Shown here: piece by piece, positions 5,884-62,315 of the stretch
How the letters are laid out: the number at the start of each line of letters is the position of its first letter
Numbering within the stretch: the first letter of the stretch is position 1
NCBI RefSeq assembly: GCF_006345805.1
Contig: NC_042997.1
Span: 38,564,001-38,628,000, forward strand
Reading direction: 5' to 3'
Length of the DNA stretch: 64,000 bases
Origin: Octopus sinensis
Taxonomy: Eukaryota
Notes under the pieces: generated by a model
Databases searched by the model: none
What the model saw: only the letters and a program-made list of their open reading frames with translations
What the model was told of the DNA's origin: nothing
Made by a program: the position numbers and the translations under genes

Positions 5884-5917
<34 letters not shown>

Positions 5918-6333
5918 GGCGCAGGAGTGGCTGTGTGGTAAGTAGCTTGCTAACCAACCACATGGTTGCGGGTTCAGTCCCACTGCGTGGCACCTTGGGC
6001 AAGTGTCTTCTGCTATAGCCCCGGGCCGACCAATGCCTTGTGAGTGGATTTGGTAGACGGAAACTGAAAGAAGCCTGTCGTATATATGTATATATATATA
6101 TATAAGTGTGTGTGTGTATATGTTTGTGTGTCTGTGTTTGTCCCCCTAGCATTGCTTGACAACCGATGCTGGTGTGTTTACGTCCCCGTCAATTAGCGGT
6201 TCGGCAAAAGAGACCGATAGAATAAGTACTGGGCTTACAAAGAATAAGTCCCGGGGTCGATTTGCTCGACTAAAGGCGGTGCTCCAGCATGGCCGCAGTC
6301 AAGTGACTGAAACAAGTAAAAGAGTAAAAGAGT
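5918..6333 (+). mobile_element. SINE family A copy
   Basis: Full-length match to 2400-2812, inserted in (TA)n. Confidence 0.9.
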
Positions 6334-6596
6334 ATATATATATATATATGCTGTGGCGTAAGACAGATAGTCTCGAGTTGTTTGTGTTTTATTAATTAAT
6401 GAATTATGTAACAGTCATTAATATGCACAATTGCTGTGACTCCACACATTTATATTTTATTGACGCGACGCTGTTTATGCCCTAATAAACCTTAGGTATG
6501 CACGAGCACATATACTGTGATATAAATAGATGATATTTGAACAAAAAAAAATTGTACATAAGACAACAAGCAAAAAATGAAAGATGAAGTTAATCA

Positions 6597-7323: not shown

Positions 7324-10300
7324 CAAATACCTGTAGTGTATATATTTCTTCATATAAAGCCACCGTTTTAGGTTTATCATACAAATACCTGTAGTGTATA
7401 TATTTCTTCATATAAAGCCACCGTTTTAGGTTTATCATACAAATACCTGTAGTGTATATATTTCTTCATATAAAGCCACCGTTTTAGGTTTATCATACAA
7501 ATACCTGTAGTGTATATATTTCTTCATATAAAGTGACCGTTTTAGGTTTATCATACAAATACCTGTAGTGTATATATTTCTTCATATAAAGCCACCGTTT
7601 TAGGTTTATCATACAAATACCTGTAGTGTATATATTTCTCATATAAAGCCACCGTTTTAGGTTTATCATACAATACCTGTAGTGTATATATTTCTTCATA
7701 TAAAGCCACCGTTTTAAGTTTATCATACAAATACCTGTAGTGTATATATTTCTTCATATAAGCCACCGTTTTAGGTTTATCATACAAATACCTGTAGTGT
7801 ATATATTTCTTCATATAAAGCCACCGTTTTAGGTTTATCATACAAATACCTGTAGTGTATATATTTCTTCATATAAAGCCACCGTTTTAGGTTTATCATA
7901 CAAATACCTGTAGTGTATATTTCTTCATATAAAGCCACCGTTTTAGGCTTATCATACAAATACCTGTAGTGTATATATTTCTTCATATAAAGCCACAGTT
8001 TTAGGTTTATCATACAAATACCTGTAGTGTATATATTTCTTCATATAAAGCCACCGTTTTAGGTTTATCATACAAATAGCTGTAGTGTATATATTTCTTC
8101 ATATAAAGCCACCGTTTTAGGTTTATCATACAAATACCTGTAGTGTATATATTTCTTCATATAAAGCCACCGTTTTAGGTTTATCATACAAATACCTGTA
8201 GTGTATATATTTCTTCATATAAAGCCACCGTTTTAGGTTTATCATACAAATACCTGTAGTGTATATATTTCTTCATATAAAGCCACCGTTTTAGGTTTAT
8301 CATACAAATACCTGTAGTGTATATATTTCTTCATATAAAGCCACCGTTTTAGGTTTATCATACAAATACCTGTAGTGTATATATTTCTTCATAAAAGCCA
8401 CCGTTTTAGGTTTATCATACAAATACCTGTAGTGTATATATTTCTTCATAAAAAGCCACCGTTTTAGGTTTATCATACAAATACCTGTAGTGTATATATT
8501 TCTTCATATAAAGCCACCATTTTAGGTTTATCATACAAATACCTGTAGTGTATATATTTCTTCATAAAAAGCCACCGTTTTAGGTTTATCATACAAATAC
8601 CTGTAGTGTATATATTTCTTCATATAAAGCCACCGTTTTAGGTTTATCATACAAATAGCTGTAGTGTATATATTTCTTCATATAAAGCCACCGTTTTAGG
8701 TTTATCATACAAATACCTGTAGTGTATATATTTCTTCATATAAAGCCACCGTTTTAGGTTTATCATACAAATACCTGTAGTGTATATATTTCTTCATATA
8801 AAGCCACCGTTTTAGGTTTATCATACAAATACCTGTAGTGTATATATTTCTTCATATAAAGCCACCGTTTTAGGTTTATCATACAAATACCTGTAGTGTA
8901 TATATTTCTTCATATAAAGCCACCGTTTTAGGCTTATCATACAAATACCTGTAGTGTATATATTTCTTCATATAAAGCCACCGTTTTAGGTTTATCATAC
9001 AAATACCTGTAGTGTATATATTTCTTCATATAAAGCCACCGTTTTAGGTTTATCATACAAATAGCTGTAGTGTATATATTTCTTCATATAAAGCCACCGT
9101 TTTAGGTTTATCATACAAATACCTGTAGTGTATATATTTCTTCATATAAAGCCACCGTTTTAGGTTTATCATACAAATACCTGTAGTGTATATATTTCTT
9201 CATAAAAGCCACCGTTTTAGGTTTATCATACAAATACCTGTAGTGTATATATTTCTTCATATAAAGCCACCGTTTTAGGTTTATCATACAAATACCTGTA
9301 GTGTATATATTTCTTCATATAAAGCCACCGTTTTAGGTTTATCATGCAAATACCTGTAGTGTATATATTTCTTCATATAAAGCCACCATTTTAGGTTATC
9401 ATACAAATACCTGTAGTGTATATATTTCTTCATAAAAAGCCACCGTTTTAGGTTTATCATACAAATACCTGTAGGTATATATTTCTTCATATAAAGCCAC
9501 GTTTTAGGTTTATCATACAAATAGCTGTAGTGTATATATTTCTTCATATAAAGCCACCGTTTTAGGTTTATCATACAAATACCTGTAGGTATATATTTCT
9601 TCATATAAAGCCACCGTTTTAGGTTTATCATACAAATACCTGTAGGTATATATTCTCATATAAAGCCACCGTTTTAGGTTTATCATACAAATACCTGTAG
9701 TGATATATTTCTTCATATAAAGCCACCGTTTTAGGTTTATCATACAAATACCTGTAGTGTATATTTCTTCATATAAAGCCACCGTTTTAGGTTTATCATA
9801 CAAATACTGTAGTGTATATATTTCTTCATATAAGCCACCGTTTTAGGTTTATCATACAATACCTGTAGTGTATATATTTCTTCATATAAAGCCACCGTTT
9901 TAGGTTTATCATACAAATAGCTGTAGTGTAATATTTCTTCATATAAAGCCACCGTTTTAGGTTTATCATACAAATACCTGTAGTGTATATATTTCTTCAT
10001 ATAAAGCCACCGTTTTAGGTTATCATACAAATACCTGTAGTGTATATATTTCTTCATATAAAGCCACCGTTTTAGGTTTATCATACAAATACCTGTAGTG
10101 TATATATTTCTTCATATAAAGCCACCGTTTTAGGTTATCATACAAATACCTGTAGTGTATATATTTCTTCATATAAAGCCACCGTTTTAGGTTTATCATG
10201 CAAATACCTGTAGTGTATATATTTCTTCATATAATGCCACCATTTTAGGTTTATCATACAAATACCTGTAGTGTATTATTTCTTCATATAAAGCCACCGT

Positions 10301-11809
10301 TTTAGGTTTATCATACAAATACCTGTAGTGTATATATTTCTTCATATAAAGCCACCGTTTTAGGCTTATCATACAAATACCTGTAGGTATATATTTCTTC
10401 ATATAAAGCCACAGTTTTAGGTTATCATACAAATACCTGTAGTGTATATATTTCTCTTCATATAAAGCCACCGTTTTAGGTTTATCATACAATACCTGTA
10501 GTGTATATATTTCTTCATATAAGCCACCGTTTTAGGTTATCATACAAATACCTGTAGTGTATATATTTCTTCATATAAAGCCACCGTTTTAGGTTTATCA
10601 TACAAATACCTGTAGTGTATAATTTCTTCATATAAAGCCACCGTTTTCGGTTTATCATACAAATAGCTGTAGTGTATATATTTCTTCATATAAAGCCACC
10701 GTTTTAGGTTTATCATACAAATACCTGTAGTGTATATATTTCTTCATATAAAGCCACCGTTTTAGGTTTATCATACAAATACTGTAGTGTATATATTTCT
10801 TCATATAAAGCCACCGTTTTAGGTTTATCATACAAATACCTGTAGTATGTATATATTTCTTCATATAAAGCCACCGTTTTAGGTTTATCATACAAATACC
10901 TGTAGTGTATATTTCTTCATATAAAGCCACCGTTTTAGGTTTATCATACAAATACCTGTAGTGTATATATTTCTTCATATAAGCCACCGTTTTAGGTTTA
11001 TCATACAAATACCTGTAGGTTATATATTCTTCATATAAGCCACCGTTTTAGGTTTATCATACAAATACCTGTAGTGTATATATTTCTCATATAAAGCCAC
11101 CGTTTTAGGTTTATCATACAAATAGCTGTAGTGTATATATTTCTTCATATAAAGCCACAGTTTTAGGTTTATCATACAAATACCTGTAGTGTATATTTCT
11201 TCATATAAAGCCACCGTTTTAGGTTTATCATACAAATCCTGTAGTGTATATATTTCTTCATATAAAGCCACGTTTTAGGTTTATCATACAAATACCTGTA
11301 GTGTATATATTTCTTCATATAAAGCCACCGTTTTAGGTTTATCATACAAATACCTGTAGTGTATATATTTCTTCATATAAAGCCACCGTTTTAGGTTTAT
11401 CATACAAATACCTGTAGTGTATATATTTCTTCATATAAAGCCACCGTTTTAGGTTTATCATACAAATACCTGTAGTGATATATTTCTTCATATAATGCCA
11501 CCGTTTTAGGTTTATCATACAAATACCTGTAGTGTATATATTTCTTCATAAAGCCACCGTTTTAGGCTTATCATACAAATACCTGTAGTGTATATATTTC
11601 TTCGTATAATGCCACCGTTTTAGGTTTATCATACAAATACCTGTAGTGTATATATTTCTTCATATAAAGCCACCGTTTTAGGTTTATCATACAAATACCT
11701 GTAGTGTATATATTTCTTCATATAAAGCCACCGTTTTAGGTTTATCATACAAATACCTGTAGTGTATATATTTCTTCATATAATGCCACCGTTTTAGGTT
11801 TATCATACA
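7324..11809. repeat. 58-bp tandem satellite, about 77-78 copies
   Basis: Unit CAAATACCTGTAGTGTATATATTTCTTCATATAAAGCCACCGTTTTAGGTTTATCATA starts at 7324, 7382, 7440, etc.; very homogeneous, with no unique spacers. Confidence 0.97.
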
Positions 11810-12753: not shown

Positions 12754-13493
12754 TTATTGATTGCAAGTTCTGGAATTTAATTTTCTTTCAGTACAAATAT
12801 ATAATGACTGGCGTTCTTTTTTTTTTTTTTTTCTTGTTGCTTCCAGATAACTTACTTTTACATACCCTCTCGAATAATAATAGTGCATATTTTAGAAAAC
12901 GACAAACAAGGAAATTTGTGATAATCATCACTAAAGAAATGTCTACTGAAAAGACACTCGACAATGAAATTACAAGATATTTATGATTTATCGAACGTAA
13001 TTTACAAAATTATTCTTAGATTGGAACCAATTCCACATTATATGAAGTAATTAGGAAAATTAAATGCTCGATCTGTCTTTTACAAAACTATAAGTTAAAG
13101 GAAATCCATGGCATCTTTCCTTTCTAAAGTCAGATCTAATAGAAAGCGTTTGGAATACAGATTGTGAATGTGCATGACACTTCAGAAATGTGTAACATAA
13201 GAATGCAGTAAATTTTTAAATCTACCATGAGTGATTTATGTTTTTCTTATGGTATTTTTTCTCGAGCATTGCGTGTTAATTCAGTTTCATTACATTCCCT
13301 AATTTTATCCGAGACAGTAATTTCGTTCTTTGGATTTCATTTTAATAAGATACAGTTTTGTGCTTGAGGAAAATCAACATATAAATAATACATAACTACG
13401 GACAAATTATCGTTTCTTGTTTAATTTAAAAGCAAGGAATTTAAAGAATATCATCTAAGATTATAAGGTTAAATATGATTTTGTATTTGTATT

Positions 13494-13711
13494 TGAGCGA
13501 TGGCTAGAAGTATATTGAGTTCTTCATAACCAGCTGATCTAGCAAGCGGGGCCTCATATCAGTGAGGGGGGCCGGTGCGCATTGATGCCGTCGAGAGGTA
13601 GGCCCCGAAACGGCGTGCATTCTCTCCTGATGACCCCATATACTTGCTAGCTTCCGATATACGGAACTTTTAACTGGTAGCACTTGCATGTGCAAGTTGT
13701 TTGCAAGATAT
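13494..13711 (+). mobile_element. GC-rich structured insert flanked by a 25-bp direct repeat (probable TSD)
   Basis: TTAAATATGATTTTGTATTTGTATT at 13469-13493 and 13712-13736; internal self-complementarity CTAGCAAG/CTTGCTAG, GGGGCCT/AGGCCCC, ATGCCGT/ACGGCGT and GAGAG/CTCTC. Confidence 0.7.
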
Positions 13712-13802
13712 TTAAATATGATTTTGTATTTGTATTATAGTGAATGATATTGAATAGATATTTAAGATTTCTGTTGATTAGTTATGAGAATTGGTTTCGA
13801 TC

Positions 13803-14126
13803 GCTTGTTTCAGTTCACTTACATGGATAATATCTTGAGAAAAGCATCATTGTCACAACACCTACACTGCTCATCAAGCTACAATATACCTCGTAAATCA
13901 ATTCAGTCGACGATATGTTTCCTTTAAATATGTGTATATCTGCATCAAAGTTTAGTAATGCATATTCTATAGTCAAATTCCTAACCATTATCCATTTCAA
14001 TGAATTCACTTTTCCACAATTCAATAAGGTACTCTTCAATTACTTACTTAGATTAAAAGAAATGTTAATACATCATTCGATAATCAGATTAGTTAGCTAT
14101 GCAGTGTGTGCGTATGTATGCGTGAG

Positions 14127-14201
<75 letters not shown>

Positions 14202-14470
14202 ATTTTACCTTTATGCCCGAATTTCATTATTGCCTTTTTATTATTACTATTAATTGCTATTTTGAAACAGACCATGATAGTATATCTAACAGGCTTTATT
14301 TTAAGAAATAAGCATAAAATATTCATTACTAAACATACACACATATTTAAAGGAATCATATAGTCGACTGAACTGATTTACAGTGTGTATTGTACTTTGA
14401 TGAGCAATGTGGACGTTGTGACAATCATGCTCTCTCGAAGTTATTATCCATAAGAGTGGACTGAAACAAG
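13803..14470. repeat. Diverged inverted repeat (~170-bp arms) around a (TA)n(TG)n tract
   Basis: The minus strand of 13803-13970 aligns to 14310-14470 (shared CACATATTTAAAGGAA, GTCGACTGAA, TTGATGAGCA, GTTGTGACAAT, TTATCCAT, ACTGAAACAAG). Confidence 0.75.
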
Positions 14471-18668: not shown

Positions 18669-19904
18669 TTTCCTTCTTCAAATTTTCTTCCGTTTCTCGC
18701 CAAGTGTTTTCCGTACACCTAGGGCAGAGAAGCTCATTGTATGCATTCCCAGATTACACACGCAAATTCACAGATAAAATATGTATTTAAAAAATTAAGG
18801 AATAATAAATTCATGGATGGATGTTGTTTTCACAGCGATAATGCTCTTCTCAGTACATGAGCCGTTCCAGTTAAGACGATTTTTTCATTTTCTGTAGGGA
18901 TGGTAAGCCTGGTATCATTTTCAAATAGGTTTCCGTACCTTTTTTTATCATTCCTAGAGATCCTACAATCACTGGTACTATAGTCGCCTTGAGATGCCAC
19001 ATTTTTTCCATTTCTATTAGCAAGTCTTTATATTTACTGATCTTGTCAAATTCTTTCGCCGCTATTTTGTGATCGCAAGGAATATTCATGTCAACTAATA
19101 AAAACATCTTTTTTGTCTGATCTTTTATAATAATATCCGGTTTATTGGCTTTTATCCTGTCGGTCTGCACGGGGAAGTCCCATAGAATCGACACATTTTC
19201 TTCTTCAGTCACAGCTTCAGGATGGTGTTTATACCATTTGTCAGTGGTTTTGATTTTATAATGCCGACATATTGTCCAGTGTAAATACTGGCTGACTCTG
19301 TCATGTCTTGCTTTGTATTCTACAGGTGCTAAGACTACACCCTGAGATTAGGTGATCTGTAGTTTTAATCTCATCGTTACAAAATCGGTATTTTGGGTCA
19401 GCTCCAATTCTTATCACATTGGCTTGGTAGCTTCGGATTAATAAGCTTCGGTCTTGAGCAGCTAATATGAAACCTTCACTCTCTGCTTTTAGCCCTGAGC
19501 TTCGTAAACATTGGTGCGTGTGTTTCTGGTCGACATCAGCTTGTTTGCTACGGGCCACATACTTGCCATGGAGAGGTTTCTGTTCCCATCTGCTAGCTAA
19601 CTTTTCATGTGCTTTTTTCTTTGCAATTAATTTTATTTTCTTTGCAGCAGCAGTTGGCGCATTTCCTTCAGCCTGATCAATCTGGTAGGTATCTAAGAGA
19701 TCAGTAGCGAATTTTTTGCTTTCTTTCAGCATAGAGTGAAATTTTTTCGGTCTTTCATTTTTTTCAACAAGTTTTAGCATCCAATTGTTGGTTGTTTCAA
19801 GGTATTTGGCCAGTCCGATTGTGGTGGTTTTGTATGTAAGTTCAAGCTGGATCAAACCTCGACCTCCCTGAGTTCTGGGAAGGTAAAGACGATCAACGTC
19901 TGCC

Positions 19905-19906
<2 letters not shown>
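18668..19906 (-). mobile_element. 5'-truncated R4/Dong-clade non-LTR retrotransposon (RT C-terminus + restriction-like endonuclease) inserted in (TAA)n
   Basis: ORFs 19301-19963 and 18871-19212 contain RLYLPRTQGGRGL, KPLHGKY, AAQD, ILWDFPVQTD..ANKPDII and KISKYKDL; (TAA)n lies on both sides. Confidence 0.9.
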
Positions 19907-19962
<56 letters not shown>

Positions 19963-20044
19963 AGTCACTGCCTATAATCGAACTCGCAATCTCGGGGTTA
20001 GTAGCCCGCGCTCTTAACTATTACACCATATGTATGGTGGTGGT

Positions 20045-24894: not shown

Positions 24895-27270
24895 TTACTT
24901 TGCTATACTTTCACTAAACTTCTTCTGATATGCGACATCTGGTGGATAAGGGAGTTTAATGTTGCTGCCCTCATCTGTTTTTCATGCTTTGAGGTAGGTT
25001 CATCTGGAACTCTTGAGGAGATCCGGTTTTGTTTTGAAAATGCCTACATCTAAGCCATGCAGATCTCTCAGGTTTTGTAGAAGGATATTGAAGAACTGTG
25101 GGCCTTTGAAACCTAAGTTGTTGCAGTATCTGGTCCTGCATCCTGATGGCAATGTTGGGATTTTTCATACTATGCAGTGGCTGTTTGTCCCGCTGTTTGT
25201 GTTACTGAAATGCCAAAGTTTGGTAAAAGTTTTTGTAGGACCATCATAGTTTCCCTTTCTCTCGTTTTATAAGTTTGAAGGAACCATCCAGCCAAGTGTC
25301 TGTACTTTAATATGCACCAGGAAAGATACATCATTACTCATGTTGATGCCCAGGCCACGTACTGATTTTGATTCAGAGATTGCATTCCCTCCAGGGCCAG
25401 TGTATCGTATCTGCTTTTCATTGAGCATTATGCGTTGGTAGTGCAGGCCGTGGAATTTTCCAACATTAAACTGCAAGTTATTTTCCTCAGCCCACCTGTA
25501 TATTGTGTCCAATTCACGTTGCAGATGCACAACGTCTCCGGAATTCTGTATCCTCTGAGAGACTTTTGTATCGTCTGAATAGCTGTCAAGGATGGCTACT
25601 TGAGCAGCTGAAGGCACATCAGAGAGGGCCACTATGAATAACAATGGCCCCAAGACAGTGCACTGTAGAATACCACTCAATATTTGTGTTTCCATGGAGG
25701 TAGCCCTGTTGGCCGCCACTACCTGAATTCTATCTTTTAGGAAGTCATGTAGCCATTCACCAAATTTTCCAACTATTCCAAATCATACAATTGACTGACT
25801 TTGTCAATGGCTTTTCCAAAGTCGTGGTATATCACGTCCACATTTGAGCTGTTAAGCAGCTGCTTTAGTACCCAGTCGCGATGCTGCAAGAGCTGTGTCA
25901 AGCAGCTTCTACCTGGTCAGAAATCGTGCTGGCTGTCAGTCAGAAAGTTATTCTCTTCAAGGAATGCAATTAATTTCCTTCGTACTATCCATGACTTTGC
26001 TGATGTGTGAGGTCAGAGAGATAGGCCTATAGGTTTTAGCATTTACTCTGCTTCCTCCTATATGAATAGGGCATAATATTCCCTCCTATAGTTTGTCCGG
26101 GAGCTTACCATTTGCGAGAAAGTTCCGAAAAAGAAGTTGCAGTGGTATTGCAAGGACCCCTTTGCATGACTTGAGAAGGCTTACTGGGAATCTATCGTGG
26201 CCAGTAGCTGAGTTTGTATCTACATCATTTATTGTCAGTATTACATCTTCTTCGATGTTGCTGTAATCAATTGTTACTGCCACCCACCCCCATTCAGCTT
26301 CTGTGGTGGTAAATACTTCTTCAGGTTTGCTAACTTGCATGTGCCATAAGGGTGGCGTGAAGACACTTTTGAGCTGGTCATACAGTGTTTCACTTATTCT
26401 CAGTGGGTTTCCCATGAGGGAGCCATTTTTTGGAGGAATGGCCCTACCCTGCAATGCACAGAGGCAGTCTCCTTGGCGTACCTAAAGAAGGCTTTATGAG
26501 CTGCTTGTATATTTCATCTAATCTAAGCTTCTCCATCTGCTCTTTCCGTCTTGGGGAGCGCTTCAGATGTTTCTCACTCTCCAGCAGTGCTGTTTCCAGG
26601 CGGGATTTCTAACTGCCGTTGAGTTCTCTGTTCAAGCGGTTTGCAATCTTTGTACACCATGTCATAATAACATTTTTCTCACTGGGAATTTGTTATTATG
26701 TACAATGGCCCTTCTCTCTGAGACAAAATTGTAGCATATGGCTTGCGTTTTTAATTTCATGTCTAAGCCGGGTGTAGAGAGACATTGGGACCAATCCCGT
26801 TTGGTGATCTCTTTCTCAATTGATTTCAAGTCTGTTTTGTGGTAGTTCAGATTGGATAGATTTTGGGTATTTCTCATAGGCTGCATATCTGTGGGTTCTT
26901 TTGATGCATACATGGTCAGCTCTATTATGTAATGATCCAAGACTAGCGTCGGTGTCTCTTTCACATTACGGATGAGATCTACATTGTTTGTGAAGTAAAG
27001 ATCGGGGATATTGTTTGCTCTGTCAGTATCATTTACGCCATGTATAACTTGGTGAGGTAAAGCAGAATTCCACATGACTTTATTCACATCGCATCATTCC
27101 TGATACGAAAAGAGGTCCTCAGGCCATTCCACATTGGGCAGTTTGAAGTCTACCGTGAGAAGTACACTGATATGCTCTTCTATTTTGGTTAAGACCTCTT
27201 CTATTCTTGCAAGGCTGTCTTCCACTCGGCCCGTGTGATTTGAGGCATCTGGTGGACGATATGTATGTTC
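24895..27270 (-). mobile_element. CR1/L2-group LINE ORF2 relic (AP endonuclease + RT)
   Basis: Fragments YRPPDAS...LLTVDFKLPNVEW and DLYFTN...LDHYII (endonuclease); SGILQCTVLGPLLF...SYSDDTKV...LQRELDTIYRWAEENNLQFN (RT); many stops. Confidence 0.85.
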
Positions 27271-31631: not shown

Positions 31632-31738
31632 TCAATAATAATAATAGTATTATTATTAATAATTGATTGTTATTTATCTAGTTATCTGGTTATCGTGTTA
31701 TAATGTTGTAATTGATAAGCATAATAATGATAATAATA

Positions 31739-31775
<37 letters not shown>

Positions 31776-31783
31776 TAATAATA

Positions 31784-33822
31784 AAGATCAACTAATGATT
31801 AATAAACCCGTAACTGAAGACAGCCACAGAAAGAAGAAAGGCCTCAGTATGGCCTGGATTGACTACAAAAAGGCGTTTGATAGCATCCCCCACACATGGA
31901 TCCTTGAAACACTAGCCATTAACAAAGTAGCACCAACAATCATAAAATTCATAGAGCACTCTATGAATAAATGGCAAACAGTCCTACATCTCCAAACAAA
32001 AGAGGGACTCATGAAAACCAAAGACATCCCCATCAAAAGAGGAATATTCCAGGGAGACACGCTCTCTCCACTCCTTTTCTGCTTGGCACTGTCACCTCTA
32101 TCTGATATGCTAAATAGAACTGGATACGGATATAAATGTTACGGCAAAACGATCAACCACCTTTTATATATGGATGACCTAAAACTATACGCTGCAAATG
32201 ACAAACAGCTGGAAACACTATTAAAGACAGTTCATGGATTTACCAAAGAAATAGATATGAAATTTGGATTAGAAAAATGCGCCAAAGTAACCATGAAAAG
32301 AGGAAAACTAGTTAAAAGTAACAACATCACACTAGATAAAACCAATGAAATAAAAGAATTAGACCAAAGCCAAACTTACAAATACTTAGGAATCCATGAA
32401 CTAGATAAGACACAACACACACAAATGAAAGAGAAAATAAAAAAAGAATATTATAGACGAGTTAGATCAATACTAAAAACAGAGCTTAATGCTAAAAACA
32501 AGATAATAGGTATCAACACTTTAGCTGTCCCAGTTATAAGTTACAGCTACAATATCCTTAACTGGACACGAAATGAACTGTCCAAAATAGATAGGAAAAC
32601 AAGAAAAATACTGACAGGATCTAGGATGCATCACCCAAAATCTGACATAGAAAGACTATATATACAACGTATAGAAGGTGGTAGAGGCCTTATACAGCTG
32701 GAAAACTACTATAAAATAACCACCATAGGACTGCAAAAATACCTACTTCAGAAGGAAGGAAAACTGATCCAGATAGCAGCAAAACACGAGCAAAACAAAA
32801 AACTGTTCTCAGTATTTAAGGAAGCTGACAAATACAAACAAGAAATCATACCACCTAATAACACGAAGAAGAAGAAGAAGATGATGAAGAAACAACAAAA
32901 GCTATAAAACAAATTAAATCCAAACTAAAAATAGAACAGCAACGAACCATGATACAACGATGGCAAGAAAAGCCCCTTCATGGTAAATACTGCACTAAAC
33001 TAAACGCAAAAGAAATAGACAAAGAAAAATCCAAGCAATGGTTGAGAAGCTCAGGACTCAAAGCAGAAACAGAGGGATTTTTAATTGCAGCACAAGACCA
33101 AAGCCTCCCCACCAGAAATTACCAAAAACATGTAATGAAAAGAATATTACAAGTAACTGCAGAATATGTGGAGATGGACAAGAAACAATAAATCATATTA
33201 TCTCTAGCTGCCCAGTCCTGGCTAAGAAGGGATATATTCACAGACATGACAGAGTTGGAACCTACATACACTGGAAGCTATGCCAACATTATGGAATAAC
33301 AACAGAAAAAAGATGGTATAGGCACACACCAGAAAAGGTTACAGAAAACGAGAAAGCAACCATACTCTGGGATATGCCGATACACACAGATAGAGAAATT
33401 AAGGCCAACAGACCAGATATAGTTGTCAGAGATCATGAAGAAAAAAAAATGCTTTCTAATTGATGTATCAATACCGGCAGATGACAACGTGTCTCTAAAA
33501 GAAATGGAGAAACCCTCAAAATACAAAGACCTGGAAATAGAGGTAACTAGAATGTGGAATCTGAAAACAGAAACAATTCCTATCATAGTAGGTGCATTAG
33601 GCGTGATAAAAAAATATTCAGACAAATACATAACAAAAACACCAGGACTTACAAACACATATATCATACAGAAAATTGCACTACTAGGCACTGCACACAT
33701 CCTACGCAGAGCACCTTCCATACAATAACCATCAGAGCATCACAACAAATCACATCACATACCCAAAGCACACAGAGCTGCGCTCGGTAGTGAAGTGAAC
33801 GCACGCTATAAAAATAAAACTA

Positions 33823-34590: not shown

Positions 34591-34654
34591 ATAATAATGA
34601 TAATATTAATTGATTATTATTTATCTGGTCATAAGCATAGACGTGTTTATATCT

Positions 34655-35045
34655 CTTTCTCTCTTTTACTTGTTTCAGTCATTTGACTGCGGCCATGCTG
34701 GAGCACCGCCTTTAATCGAGCAACTCGACCCCGGGACTTATTCTTTGTAAGCCCAGTACTTATTCTATCGGTCTCTTTTGCCAAACCGCTAAGTGACGGG
34801 AACATAAATACACCAGCAATGCTAGTGGGACAAACACAGACACACAAACACACACATACATATATATATATACATATATACGAGGGGCTTCTTTCAGTTT
34901 CCGTCTACCAAATCCACTCACAAGGCTTTGGTCGACCCGAGGCTATAGTAGAAGACACTTGCCCAAGGTGCCACGCGGTGGGACTGAACCCGGAACCATG
35001 TGGTTGGTAAACAAGCTACTTACCACACAGCCACTCCTGCGCCTA
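34655..35045 (-). mobile_element. SINE family A copy
   Basis: Reverse complement of 5918-6333. Confidence 0.9.
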
Positions 35046-35055
35046 TATGTTCCAA

Positions 35056-35104
<49 letters not shown>

Positions 35105-38021: not shown

Positions 38022-38812
38022 TCATATGGACAGGCAGACAGGCAGACTGACAGGCAGACTGACAGGCAGCAAAATAGCCATATAGATAAAGATATGTAAT
38101 GATAAGGAAGAATTTTGAAGTACTTAACCCAAATAACTATCAAGATGCAAGTAAAAATAATCCAAATTTAAGGCTAGCAGCATGTAACCAGTGTGAAAGT
38201 AGGACAATATAAGACAATTAGTGAGGAATAAGTGCAGTAAACAAAAAGCTTACAACAGCTGCCTTTTAGATGATGAGCATATATTTTTTTCTACTCTTGG
38301 CACAAAGCCCAAAATTTGGTGGTAGGAGGCCAGTCGATTTGATCGATCCTAGTACGTAACTGGTACTTGATTTATCGACCCCGAAAGGATGAAAAGGCAA
38401 AATCGACCTCAAAAGGATGAAAAGGCAAAGTCGACCTCGGCGGAATTTGAACTCAGAACGTAAACACAGACGAAGTACCGTAAAGACAGACGAAATACAA
38501 GATGAGCGTATATTACTATGACTCGACATAAATTTTGCTGTTTGGCACCAGGTCAACATTATCAAGCTGGTCGAAGAATTTCCAGTATGATCATCCCCTT
38601 TTGGTTTTCTTTTTTCTTTTACTTTTTCAAACATAGTTTTTCTTGAACTACAGTGTATGAACTACAGTGTATCCTTCATATTTCTTGCAAAACTATAAGG
38701 CAGAGTTAACAAAGGTTAAAGTATATTTAGTCATTATTTTAGCAGGTCGAAGTGAAGCCCTATCCTTGATTCGACAACATATTGAAGACGAATTACAGCG
38801 CATGGAAACATA

Positions 38813-39230
38813 GGCGTAGGAGTGGCTGTGTGGTACGTAGCTTTTTTACCAGCCACATGGTTCCGGGTTCAGTCCCACTGCATGGCACCTTGGGCTAGTG
38901 TCTTCTACTATAGCCTCGGGCCGACCAAAAGCCTTGTGAGTGGATTTGGTAGACGGAAACTCAAAGAAGCCCGTCGTATATATGTATATATATATATGCG
39001 TGTGTGTGTTTGTGTGTCTGTGCTTGTCCCCCTAGCATTGCTTGACAACCGATGCTGGTGTGTTTATGTCCCCGTTACTTAGCGGTTCGGCAAAAAAAGA
39101 GACCGATAGAATAAGTACTGGGCTTACAAAAGAATAAGTCCCGGGGTCGAGTTGCTTGATTAGAGGTAGTGCTCCAGCATGGCCGCAGTCAAATGACTGA
39201 AACAAGTAAAAGAGTAAAAGAGAAAAGAGA
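38813..39230 (+). mobile_element. SINE family A copy
   Basis: Full-length match to other family A copies. Confidence 0.9.
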
Positions 39231-50395: not shown

Positions 50396-50633
50396 AGCTG
50401 ACACGAATCATCATAACACAAGTAACTCTTTTCCAATATTCAGATGATTTTTAATCCTCCACATGAGCAAGCTTTTTCTCAACTATAACTTTAATTTTTA
50501 TGCCCTCCAACGTCGTTGACTGTTCCCCCAATGCGTTGAGCTGTTCCTAAAAAGAGGGAGCCATAAAAATTCGTTAAATCTGAGACCAAACACTCCGTTT
50601 ATAAAGAAAACTTACGAAGAGTATACACATATA

Positions 50634-51050
50634 GGCGCAGGAATAGCTGTGTGGTAAGTAGCTTGCTAACCAGCCACATGGTTCCGAGTTCAGTCCCACT
50701 GCGTGGCATCTTGGGCAAGTGTCTTCTGCTATAGCCCCGGGCCGACCAATGTCTTGTGAGTGGATTTGGTAGACGGAAACTGAAAGAAGCTTGTCGTATA
50801 TATGTATATATTATATGTATGTGTGTGTGTTTGTGTGTCTGTGTTTTGTCCCCCTAGCATTGCTTGACAACCGATGCTGGGTGTTTTACGTCCCCGTCAC
50901 TTGCGGTTCGGCAAAAGAGACCGCGATAGAATAAGTACTGGGCTTACAAAGAATAAGTCCCGGGGTCGAGTTGCTCGACTAAAGGCGGTGCTCCAGCATG
51001 GCCGCAGTCAAATGACTGAAACAAGTAAAAGAGTAAAAGAGTAAAAGAGT
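50634..51050 (+). mobile_element. SINE family A copy
   Basis: Full-length match to other family A copies. Confidence 0.9.
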
Positions 51051-51243
51051 ATATATGTATAGATGTATAATTTTGGTTTCATTATTTTTATATTTATGTT
51101 TATATTGGTTATAGTATATACTTCCTTTTCTCTTTATGTGAATGTGTTTATATATTACTTGTTTTTTCATTCCTTTATATATGCATCATTGTTACATATC
51201 CGTTAGCATTCACTGTTTTCGTAAGTTTGACTTTATAAGATCA

Positions 51244-52387: not shown

Positions 52388-52467
52388 ATGTATATATATA
52401 TAAATTATATACACGTTATATGAATGTATATGTATGTATAATATATATATATATATATATGTATATA

Positions 52468-52828
52468 TGTAAGTAGCTTGTTTACCAACCACATGGTTCA
52501 GGTTCAGTCCCACTGCGTGGCACCGGGGCAAGTGTCTTCTACTATAGCCTCGGGCCGACCAAAGCCTTGTGAGTGGATTTGGTAGATGGAAACTGAAAAG
52601 AAGCCCGTCATATATATATATATATATATATGTATATATGCGTTTGTGTGTCTGTGTTTGTCCCCATAGCGTTACTTAGCGGTTTGGCAAAATGAGACCG
52701 ATAGAATAAGTACTGGGCTTACAAAAGAATAAGTCCCGGGGTCGAGTTGCTCGATTAAAAAAGGCGGTGCTCCAGCATGGCCGCAGTCAAATGACTGAAA
52801 CAAGTAAAAGAGTAAAAGAGTAAAGAGT
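52468..52828 (+). mobile_element. SINE family A copy (5'-truncated, internally deleted)
   Basis: Match to family A. Confidence 0.85.
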
Positions 52829-53179
52829 ATATATATATACATATGTATTATATGCATGCATGCAAGCATACGTACTTACATATATGTATATACACAGGCA
52901 TACACATACATATCATAGCCACGTATATATGTGTGATTGTTTGCCAACAGGGGATGGAAAATTTACCGATTGAATGAACAAATGCTGACAACAGTCAAAT
53001 TTATTGTAGAATTTGTCTTGTCTGCGTTTACATATTTCATCTTACTTATTATCCAATTAGTCTGATTCTATAAGACATCTGGCGATGCATAAGCCGTGAA
53101 ATCCCAATTAATATGAAGTTTATCACGTTTGTACATGCACGTGCGTGCGGCGCGCGCGCCCGTACATGTGTTGCGAGTG

Positions 53180-53529
<350 letters not shown>

Positions 53530-53896
53530 TTTATTATAGTGAGGTTTTGAATAAGCAAATGAAGTTCCTGCCGGCCATAGAGTAATGATGCTGTTTAATA
53601 AAGCTCCTGTTGGCCTTCTAATGATGCTGACTGATGAGCCAGTTGTTTGGGGGTTTCATCGAGTTGTACCGATATAATGTAGGATAAATGTAATAATGAT
53701 AACAGTAATTCTTGGATGGAATTCATAAACATTTACTGCTTCGCTCCGTGCGTTTCCGAAACTCACGTGTCACTTAAGATGACACGCCGTGTTCCTAGTA
53801 TGATGATGATATTGTAGTCCATTGTATGCTTGGGTACTTGGTTGCTCACCTTTGAGGGTTCATTTCTTCGGGCTATATAATATTCATGGATGTATA

Positions 53897-54310
53897 GGCG
53901 CAGAGTGGCTGTGTGGTAAGTAGCTTGCTAACCAACCACATGGTTCCGGGTTCAGTCCCACTCTGTGGCACCTTGGGCAAGTGTCTTCTACTATAGCCTC
54001 GGGCTGACCAATGCCTTGTGAGTGGATTTGGTAGACGGAAACTGAAAGAAGCCTGTTGTATATATGTATATATATATGTGTGTATGTGTGTGTGTTTGTG
54101 TGTCTGTGTTTATCCCCCTAGCATTGCTTGACAACCGATGCTGGTGTGTTTACGGTCCCCCTTCACTTAGGGTTCGGCAAAAGAACCGATAGAATAAGTA
54201 CTGGCTTACAAAGAATAAGTCCTGGGGTCGATTTGCTCGATTAAAGGCGGTGCTCCAGCATGGCCGCAGTCAATGACGGAAGCAAGTAAAAGAGTAAAAG
54301 AGTAAAGAGT
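53897..54310 (+). mobile_element. SINE family A copy
   Basis: Full-length match to other family A copies. Confidence 0.9.
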
Positions 54311-59590: not shown

Positions 59591-60511
59591 TACATGTAAG
59601 TTCTCTAGACATCCTAGTGTTTGAGGCTATACTCATGAAAAATAATGTAGATATTAAACAATTTCTAAAGTTCATTAAAGTTCTTTAAAGATGATGTACA
59701 GTCTTATCACAAATTTTAAAAAAGTTTTGATAGCATCACAGAGAAGGTGACCTAATCCATATGAATTTCCATAGATATGATGAGGGATTATATACTCACA
59801 GAAGACAAATTTATCCATTGTTAATTACAACGAGGTGGGTCTCAATTCCTGCTTATTAGCATTACAGAGAGGGAGAATTAATCCTTTGTATATATGCACA
59901 GATTCCAATGGTGTAGATGTAAATTTCCAGAGAAATGGAGATGAATTTCATATTCACAGGCGATAAATTTCACAATGGTTGAACACAATGAGGTAGGTAT
60001 CAATCCTTGTTATATGATTAGGTATTTGCCACATTAATCACATTACTGCTATTCACAAGAGGCAGTAGCTATTTAACTCTTAAAGGCTGAAGGGCTTACT
60101 AGATCGGCCAAGAATAGAGAAGGGAATAGAAGAAAAGAGAGAAATAATGGAGGAGGGAGCAAAAAGGGGGGGGAGGAAAGGGGGACTAAAAGAGAAGAGA
60201 AAAGGAAACAGAGAATAAGAAGAAAAAAGAAAAAGAGAAAAGAAAAGAAATAGGGAAAGAAGGGAAAAAAGAAAAAGAAAAAAAGAGGGTTCTAGTTATA
60301 CAGAAGAGTTAGTAGACTGTAAGTCTGGTTTTAATCAACAGACATCTAGGAACTAGAGGAGAATATTATTCTTTGACCAGTAAACCGTTAATTTATTGCT
60401 GTTGAAATCAGCTATGAGTTTAAAGAGAATCTAAAGAGATAACATAGTCAGGGGTTAAGGGGTCAGATGCTAAAATCACCAGAAAATACATTAGGAAAAT
60501 CTAAGTATAAT

Positions 60512-62315
60512 CTTAGGCGCATATCTATTAAAATGCATAAGCAAGGATATCCCAGAAATACAGGGGGGTCTATATAGGGATGATGCTCTGTTTGTTATCC
60601 CTAGTAATAATAAATCTGTTATAGAAAGGATTAGAAAGAAAATTAATAAGTTCTTTAAGGATTTCAACCTCAGTATAACGTATGAACCGGGCACTAAAAT
60701 AGCTAATTTCCTAGATATTACCCTAGACCTTAACTCCAAGCTACATTACCCATTTAGAAAGGAAGGCGAAGTCACGAATTACGTAAATAAATTATCAATC
60801 ATCCCCCAATATAATAGAATCTTTAGTAAGAAATATTTCATTAAGAATTTCAAAATTATCATCCAATAAGGATATATTTAACTCCCATTCTGAGCATTAT
60901 AATGCGGCGTTTAACTAAGGCTGGATACAACCAAAAGATTACATTCGTTGATAAGGAGAACTCACGTATTCCTAATAATGAAGTTATCAGTAATCACGTA
61001 AGCAGCAAAAAAGACCAAGCCCGAAATAAAAGTAGAATTAAATTAACGGTAAACGCTAATCTAGAGTACAGGCCCAACAATTCAAATAGAAGCATTGACC
61101 AGAACATAGGTAACTCGGATAAGATTGAAGTAGATAACCTAAGATGCACACCAATAAGAATAAAAATAATGGTAATAAATACAATACTCCGGTGAGATGA
61201 ATAGTAGTAATTCTACGAACCCTAAATTTTATAAAAAAGATATATTATGGCTGAATATTCCTTTCAACTGTGCGATACAATCGGATATACAGAACAAATT
61301 CAAAGTGATTCTGGAAAAAAATTTTCCCTATCTCTCATAGATATCATAGAATTATTTCTAGGAAAACAGTTAGGATTTCTTATTCAACCCTCCCAAATAT
61401 GTCCACTTTAATAGCTAAAATTAATAATAACAACATTAAACTACCAGGAAAGATAGAAATAAAATAATAATATCAGAATGAATACCAATAGCAATAACAA
61501 TAATACACCAACAATAAAACAGCAATAGGAACTATCAAAACATAGGTGAAATTAGTAACCACAGAATGACTAATAACATTAACATTAATAGTATAATAAC
61601 AATGCCGATATTAATAGAAGTAATATTGTTAATAATAGAAATAATAGAAATAAGGCTAATGGAGAAAATAGGGAGAATGAAAATATCTGTGATATCTATA
61701 CAATAATATACAGTTGGATAAAAGACTAACAATAATAATAACATTACGAATAATATAAGAAATCTTGGTAGGACTTTACACCTAATGATGAAACAGAAGG
61801 ATCAATAAATAATAACAATACTTAGATATCAGCACCAACTATAGAAATGATAATCAAAATAATAGGAACCTTAAACATCTACCCAGGAATAATCCAAGGC
61901 CTGAAGTTGTTCCTCCTGTGTGTAAGTGTAGAATAAAATCAAAATGCCCGGCACCTGGTCTATGTAGGGAAAATAATGTAATCTATAAATGTACCATATC
62001 CACGGAGAATAACAAATATTTTTACATTGGCTGTACAATTAATTTTTAGCCAGAGTTAGAAATCACATCTCGACTTTAAATTACGTCATAAAGCTGGTAC
62101 CACCACACTTTCAAACAAAATTGGGACTCAAAAATAATAATAAAATTATACCCTTAATTGGGAAATAGTTAGGAGAGCAATTCCGTATAAAAATAGTAGG
62201 GTTGGTTGTCAACTATGCTCCATGGAGACGTACGAAATTCTAAAGCATAGTAAACATAGAAATTATTGAATAACCATATCGAACTAGGTCAAGTTTGTGT
62301 CCACGCTAATTGAAG
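60512..62315 (+). pseudogene. Penelope-like RT C-terminal half + zinc finger + GIY-YIG endonuclease (frameshifted)
   Basis: Manual translation gives GGLYRDDALF...NFLDITLDL...YNAA; KKDILWLNIPFN...RISYSTLPNM; CKCRIKSKCPAPGLCRENNVIYKC...YFYIGCT; WEIVRRAIPY...CQLCSME...LLN. Confidence 0.88.

Follow-up and report, generated by a model that had tools for sequence, protein, structure and literature searches.

A conserved hammerhead variant, apparently undescribed, in a HERO-like retrotransposon of Octopus sinensis and its predicted role in copying from end-joined RNA

The window analyzed here, a 64,000-nucleotide stretch of Octopus sinensis contig NC_042997.1, carries on its forward strand a 218-bp insert (13494-13711) that is a 5'-truncated tail copy of a HERO-like non-LTR retrotransposon (LINE) with its core intact. 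The insert consists of eight final codons, a stop and the 3' UTR of a 3.7-kb element, and spans u3512-3729 of the 3729-nt unit. From the truncation point at 13494 (u3512) it reads through the end of the ORF, ERWLEVY, to a TGA stop at 13516-13518 (the segment 13494-13518), and then through the 3' UTR (13519-13711) up to the usual 3' end of the insertions, which is the priming site; in 5'-complete copies this UTR continues directly into the 5' UTR. Two exact 25-bp direct repeats, a target site duplication (TSD), lie on either side (13469-13493 and 13712-13736). The repeats had already been pointed out in the initial annotation, as had the GC-rich island (G+C is 50% in the insert and 60% in 13539-13650, against 28-30% in the flanks) and the retroposed nature of the insert, which is indeed a truncated LINE copy with a real TSD. 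What had been taken for a free retrozyme or viroid-like circle of 220-245 nt is instead the end of a protein-coding element; the insert is a dead copy, an ordinary truncated insertion of a HERO-like LINE. Its TSD is atypical for the family, as a non-simple duplication of at least 8 bp was found in 4 of 84 unbiased copies (control, 2 of 420), and the 25 bp seen here is the longest.

Other repeats were noted in the window. A 58-bp tandem repeat is present in 78 copies with 96% matches (7324-11809), an interspersed repeat of about 420-470 bp occurs at least seven times (2400-2825, 5884-6352, 34634-35083, 38810-39226, 50622-51061, 52429-52838, 53874-54306), and further retroelement ORF fragments with RT-like motifs lie at 18871-20017, 25267-27093, 31663-33463 and 60495-60869. 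A 66-bp inverted repeat (13874-13939 and 14335-14400, 85% complementary and 395 bp apart) possibly represents MITE ends.

A search of the octopus's own genome (2.7 Gb) for other copies returned 2214 candidates, with an identity of 97-100% in the 40 that were scored, and the 945 occurrences of a 19-mer from the 3' end set the copy number at 945 or more. The copies share a common 3' end and have variable 5' ends. The 3729-nt unit is coding, its single ORF holding an N-terminal zinc finger, a reverse transcriptase (RT), a CCHC knuckle and a PD-(D/E)xK-type domain and ending in ERWLEVY and a stop; Pfam names only RVT_1, and the RLE motifs were taken from alignment. Judged by eye in the supplementary alignment of PMC7650587, the RT resembles the HERO-1_BF and HEROTn rows and is much closer to them than to the R4 row shown there. 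We call the element HERO-like on this placement by eye against reference RT rows, rather than on a reference tree. Homologues with about 37-43% identity were found in fish and lancelets, the protein identity of the relatives across lineages is 31-48%, and viral contigs gave no relative. Among the matches listed, four runs under other organism codes held the element and a second subfamily, with no usable covariation. An older subfamily (L250-L269, with a 22-mer that has 347 exact matches) differs in its UTR on both sides of the ribozyme and has the same helices; its non-CpG divergence is 2.2% in the ribozyme compared with 3.9% and 5.5% in the adjoining UTR, in copies that are not independent of each other.

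Several loci (L143, L144, L160, L162, L164, L307) are internally deleted derivatives of 1.0-1.5 kb that retain both UTRs. Independent insertions of such derivatives, differing in their tails, were found repeatedly (L143, L162), and the derivatives are likely to be non-autonomous, retrozyme-like partners of the full element. In the 5' UTR just past the junction we noted purine-rich repeats of GGAAAGAC spaced by about 20-60 nt (L100:1125-1300), which are also found in the spacers of L186, L200, L207, L221, L227 and L230 and are thus conserved among distant lineages. These repeats are strand-biased, with 42 forward and 7 reverse occurrences in 271 kb, and are candidates for a promoter, a protein-binding site or a translation signal. 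In L100:1140-1390 about 75 codons of open frame precede the first Met of the ORF, as though a non-AUG start were possible. One HERO copy contains a nested 5.1-kb APE-type LINE with an 8-bp duplication (L372:4400-9485, G000:C18 family; also L369-L371); the same LINE occurs at a dozen loci, on C18 or unplaced, and in three daughter insertions with differing internal deletions. An apparent truncation hot spot at u3370 and an apparent 5' transduction were considered and rejected, the shared "flank" being this nested LINE; the transduction counts neither for nor against.

The 3' UTR of the insert holds the hammerhead core (CUGAnGA, GAAA, and NUH with A15.1-U16.1) in three blocks that follow one another as cleavage site, GAAA and CUGAUGA, an order designated S-G-C. 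The S block (13585-13598, with ATGCCG-TC-GAGAG at 13585-13597) contributes one strand of stem III, the GUC triplet and one strand of stem I, and cleavage is predicted, by analogy, after C13592. The G block (13601-13615, with GGCCCC-GAAA-CGGCGT at 13601-13616) supplies the 3' strand of stem II, the GAAA at 13607-13610 and the second strand of stem III, while the C block (13621-13637, with CTCTC-CTGATGA-CCCC at 13622-13637) supplies the second strand of stem I, the CUGAUGA at 13627-13633 and the CCCC of helix Pb. The remaining partners lie on one gapless upstream strand, which reads GGGG (Pb), hairpin Pc, GGGGCC (stem II) and GGTGCGC (helix I'). The GGGG of Pb (13548-13551) pairs with the CCCC at 13634-13637, directly 3' of CUGAUGA; Pc (13552-13567) is the second added arm of a four-way junction; the 5' strand of stem II (13568-13573), which is upstream of the cleavage strand, starts with G13568 as G10.1; and the 5' strand of helix I' (13574-13580) pairs with 13615-13621, joining the distal ends of stems I and II. 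Pb is extended by an outer helix, P0 (13539-13546 with 13643-13650), with a pair probability of 0.92-1.0. A bulge of 4-6 nt follows the 5' strand of I' at the window locus, at the place where most relatives show a k-turn pattern.

All motif blocks, including the G-runs at 13548-13553 and 13564-13573, stand where the initial annotation had put them. Its proposals that the pairing of stems III and I around GUC keeps the hammerhead register, that the block order is non-canonical (S-G-C and not that of types I-III) and pseudoknotted, and that the upstream G-runs could partner the CCCC and GGCCCC strands were all upheld, the G-runs being the missing halves of Pb and stem II; of the arrangements that it had offered, the four-way one is the one that covaries among relatives. 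The suggestion that the insert folds largely as a rod was abandoned, the stability of the + strand being no better than that of shuffled sequences (z -0.33; z -2.79 for the - strand), and the ATCAG/CTGAT pairing on which it drew is outside the conserved fold. A hammerhead on the minus strand was likewise rejected after folding of both strands and a window-wide run of the core descriptor, which has a single match in the 64 kb, both strands included. It had also been suggested that the linker after stem III looks too short for a simple fold in cis, so that a dimer might be needed. This linker is itself one strand (13615-13621) of helix I', cleavage in cis by monomers is described for SGC ribozymes with a 0-nt link after stem III in the available text of PMC10085705, and relatives bend the arm with a k-turn pattern, all of which makes a dimer unnecessary. 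Nested folding, in a model that excludes pseudoknots, favours an inactive form lacking stems I and II (-42.9 compared with -33 to -35 kcal/mol for nested subsets of the fold). In Rfam searches the insert matched nothing at E up to 10, the window nothing at gathering score and 13 loci nothing relevant, with no match to a hammerhead model; the S-G-C order is also not among the circularly permuted orders of hammerhead types I, II and III.

A small retrozyme or viroid-like circle of 220-245 nt, acting through a dimeric hammerhead, is in our view very improbable. The copy does have a TSD and a 243-bp repeat spacing, and the internally deleted derivatives of 1.0-1.5 kb exist and move, which such a circle would accommodate. 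Nevertheless, the 5' end of the insert is only one of many truncation points, its first 25 bp are ORF, a tandem 243-bp unit was not seen, and the partners of a monomer fold are complete and covarying.

The fold was followed in 79 metagenome loci that had been chosen by protein alone, the core being sought within 500 nt of the ORF end. An S-G-C core was present in 49 of the 79 relatives, in none of the 79 reverse strands and in none of 79 coding stretches. Stem II in the canonical SGC position (at least 3 bp) was found in 0 of 50 sequences (the 49 relatives and the window), and an upstream stem II of at least 4 bp in 46 of the same 50. Among 48 sequences, the closing 10.1-11.1 pair of stem II beside GAAA joins the upstream G to C in 41, to U in 6 and is A-U in 1, so that the position of G13568 is occupied by G in 47; the cleavage triplets are GUC (20), GUU (17), GUA (10) and AUC (1), and helix I' has at least 4 bp in 38. 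Since the helix searches themselves require pairing, counts of junctions and helices have meaning only against shuffle and swap controls. When near-identical rows were merged at 85%, leaving 35 lineages that are mutually related, a perfect four-way junction was found in 25 of 35 compared with 17 of 1050 shuffles and 29 of 1190 lineage swaps; L180 (atypical fit, and so out of the junction and k-turn counts) and L231 and L243 (no upstream stem II by strict search) were left out. Five pairs were formed by stems III and I in 94% and 91% of native sequences, respectively, and in 21% and 6% of swaps, and both stems covary, with 2-6 pair types per variable position; every helix has several pair types across lineages. 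It is therefore very probable, from comparison of these sequences, that the fold is conserved with compensatory changes, and cleavage of the monomer in cis is predicted with good confidence.

In a standard k-turn, a 3-nt bulge followed by tandem GA/AG pairs lies between two helices. That pattern, placed after stem III, is seen in 22 of the 35 lineages, against 0-5 when other bulge lengths are asked for; in a quick tree, the clade of the window locus was found to lack the standard k-turn and to carry a bulge on the opposite strand instead. A sharp bend at this point would bring the III-I' arm back to the tops of stems I and II.

The other 30 relatives comprise 17 with truncated or decayed blocks (by eye), 5 with less than 90 nt of 3' sequence and 8 with no motif. 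Six of the eight motif-less relatives form one clade in the quick tree, which was midpoint-rooted and built with no reference HERO sequences; L179, tagged "noHHR" in it, does have a degenerate motif. In this clade (L174, L195, L205, L214, L215, L217) several members have repeated GGATTA/TAATCC pairs 3' of the ORF, and the near-identical L205 and L214 continue into the 5'-UTR repeats about 170 nt past the stop. The clade may hold another structured RNA, and an Rfam search of five of its members at E up to 1 returned nothing relevant.

Genome copies offer evidence on the template that is copied. Loci were retrieved for 39 of 41 matches of one search and 30 of 40 of another, and all 17 distinct insertions among them that reach the first base of the unit have a piece of their own tail immediately upstream. 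These tails measure 6-975 bp, all share one junction sequence, and 12 of the 17 cross the predicted cut; three tails are just 6, 7 and 26 nt long, and two of those three are within an AT microsatellite. Arrays of two or more full units were not seen in the octopus genome, where the longest array has 1.26 units (L111). In an unbiased sample of 100 copies taken in genome order, 91 cross the predicted cut. Of 98 non-tandem copies in that sample, 18 have 3' ends that continue 3-7 nt into the unit start, with about 2 (~1.8%) expected, and in 4 of 13 long copies the last bases are CTA or more, as though the template had continued into the unit start. The order ORF end, UTR, ORF start was met in 12 of the 79 metagenome contigs. 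In run X1 a 1283-nt contig (depth 76) and a 35-nt contig overlap into a closed loop of about 1258 nt, similar in size to the 1.0-1.5-kb derivatives, which passes through the cut as well as the junction and has no branch leading out into flanks; that X1 is RNA is no more than a guess, and such a contig loop looks the same for a circle and a tandem transcript. Three other such runs gave no loop. Taken together, the genome copies and the X1 loop call for a template that runs unbroken through the cut and the 3'/5' junction and on which priming is internal. A ligated circle explains every one of these template observations; most of them would also follow from a precise jump on a nicked unit or from an uncut read-through RNA.

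The first of these alternatives would have the ribozyme cut and the unit stay linear, with the knotted fold keeping the 5' and 3' ends together so that the RT jumps the nick, much as in an R2-like template jump. The cut would then chiefly define the 5' end, perhaps for cap-independent translation, an idea that fits with the ORF frame being open well upstream of the first Met and with the ties between self-cleavage and translation described for viral hammerheads and retrotransposon HDV-like ribozymes in the accessible part of PMC13725137. Such a jump predicts the same tail-before-head pattern in the genome, and stems I, III and I' do bridge the cut. A head-to-head fold-back, L336 (G000:C2:10643160-10643344), has as one arm an exact cut-to-3'-end fragment and so breaks at the predicted cut, although it is a single case, and one deletion (L125) ends there too; other deletions cluster 13-48 nt upstream of the cut, between repeated G-runs. 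The 5' ends, however, do not pile up at the cut, as only 2 of the 100 copies end within 4 nt of it. Jumps by R2 usually leave gained or lost bases, yet small indels at the cut are absent from all 178 copies that cover it, and the X1 contig is unbroken across it. We therefore hold a linear unit to be unlikely.

An even less likely reading is that the fold is a structural element (a binding site for the ORF protein or a signal for internal priming) or a slow ribozyme, the templates being uncut read-through RNA of partial-tandem masters, as has been proposed for a Penelope-like element in partial tandem with internal priming (PMC11167929, in the part available). Nearly all copies cross the site intact, as the 91 of 100 above indicate, and a stable nested fold can form with no stems I and II, both of which would suit this reading. 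A plain binding site has no need of the catalytic positions, all of which are conserved across lineages of only 31-48% protein identity. Moreover, under linear read-through the upstream tail could only become shorter, whereas tails of up to 975 bp are found in young copies, and the long copies ending in CTA or more also speak against uncut read-through.

Returning to the end-joined template, we consider it reasonably probable that the element replicates by self-cleavage to unit length, end-joining (probably circular) and internally primed reverse transcription round the circle, the cleavage being predicted. A promoter of the host or of the element would read through a "tail + unit" copy and yield an RNA with two ribozymes, each of which would fold as a monomer, the four-way junction of Pb and Pc placing the upstream G on C11.1 and the bent III-I' arm clamping stems I and II. 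Cleavage would release a 3.7-kb unit with 5'-OH and cyclic-phosphate ends, and these might be closed by the reverse reaction or by a host ligase. The RLE endonuclease would nick AT-rich DNA, and the RT would prime about 119 nt downstream of the joint, helped by 0-7 nt of pairing with CTAAGAC, cross the joint and mostly drop off early, as it may have done after 218 nt in the insert; occasionally it would exceed one full turn and so rebuild the upstream ribozyme. That a covalent circle is the main template we take as the fairly probable case. With slightly better than even confidence, HERO may be an autonomous, protein-coding LINE clade replicating through a ribozyme-made 3.7-kb circle, with a core split at A9/G10.1, a four-way junction and a kinked arm, by rolling target-primed reverse transcription, the circle possibly serving as mRNA too.

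The motif is real and conserved, a hammerhead variant that appears to be undescribed, in a known retrotransposon clade. No description of it was found in the literature searched, in which only the SGC paper has this block order (Repbase reports, Fell et al. 2025 (Nature), most subscription papers and picture-only supplementary figures lay outside that scope), and copying from an end-joined, circle-like RNA, the likely route here, is undescribed for this element class in the same literature. If true, the fold breaks the stated rule that CUGAnGA and stem II are inseparable, and places a hammerhead that is not circularly permuted in animal genomes, in thousands of copies invisible to Rfam. Should the circle prove real, the retrozyme or viroid mode of replication would be shared by an R2-related LINE clade that encodes its own enzyme, and the long-proposed RT copying of a ribozyme-made circle into the genome becomes testable with one protein and one RNA. 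The findings are also relevant to gene-insertion tools based on RLE retrotransposons.

The closest known ribozymes are the type-SGC hammerheads (HRIMA-1 and variants; Eckert et al. 2023), with the order site, GAAA, CUGAnGA (PMC10085705). As far as the available text of that paper goes, the two share the block order, all core nucleotides, a short linker between stems I and II (2-3 nt in the HERO-like fold, "typically three" in SGC) and an extra helix that links the distal ends of stems I and II and is directly joined to stem III. The same text notes the geometric puzzle of how the arm returns to the tops of stems I and II. In the published ribozymes CUGAnGA adjoins its stem II strand, as an explicit assumption, whereas in the HERO-like fold that strand lies upstream, the gap is filled by the four-way junction (Pb, Pc), and the III-I' arm is a bent duplex, with a k-turn pattern in 22 of the 35 lineages; the examples given there come from metatranscriptomes, none from the genomes of known organisms. 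We thus regard the HERO-like fold as one that works like SGC and do not class it as a member, as its stem II strand is not directly 3' of CUGAnGA (0 of 50).

With the HERO clade, as far as it is covered in the available parts of PMC4640811 and PMC7650587, the element shares a single ORF with an N-terminal zinc finger, RT, CCHC and PD-(D/E)xK-type domain, and also the weak target specificity with many AT-microsatellite flanks (PMC4640811). A HERO ribozyme, partial-tandem structure or circular intermediate was not found in the literature searched, with Repbase reports outside its scope. Like the Penelope-like elements (PLEs) treated in the accessible text of PMC11167929 and PMC7229834, the element is autonomous and has a hammerhead in a repeated tail, partial tandems and internal initiation by the RT. 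PLEs have a telomerase-like RT, a GIY-YIG nuclease and minimal type I hammerheads according to the same sources, whereas the HERO-like element has an R2-like RT, an RLE-type nuclease and a full-size knotted core. The cycle proposed for animal non-LTR retrozymes, from hammerhead cut to monomer, circle and retro-insertion (PMC7229834 and bioRxiv 10.64898/2026.07.22.740005, in part), is similar to the one predicted here; the preprint, in its available part, contains 0 matches for "Hero". Those retrozymes are described in PMC7229834, as far as its available text goes, as non-coding tandem repeats of 170-400 nt with type I hammerheads, likely mobilized by PLEs, while the HERO-like unit is neither short nor non-coding, has 3729 nt and a coding function, and lacks a type I hammerhead. 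Finally, R2 and other LINEs with 5' HDV-like ribozymes are, in the parts of PMC13580325 and PMC13725137 at hand, alike in that an RLE element frees its RNA from read-through transcripts by self-cleavage. Their ribozyme belongs to another class and the R2 cut sets the genomic 5' end, whereas the predicted cut of the HERO-like element lies inside the inserted DNA, where the RT reads across it.
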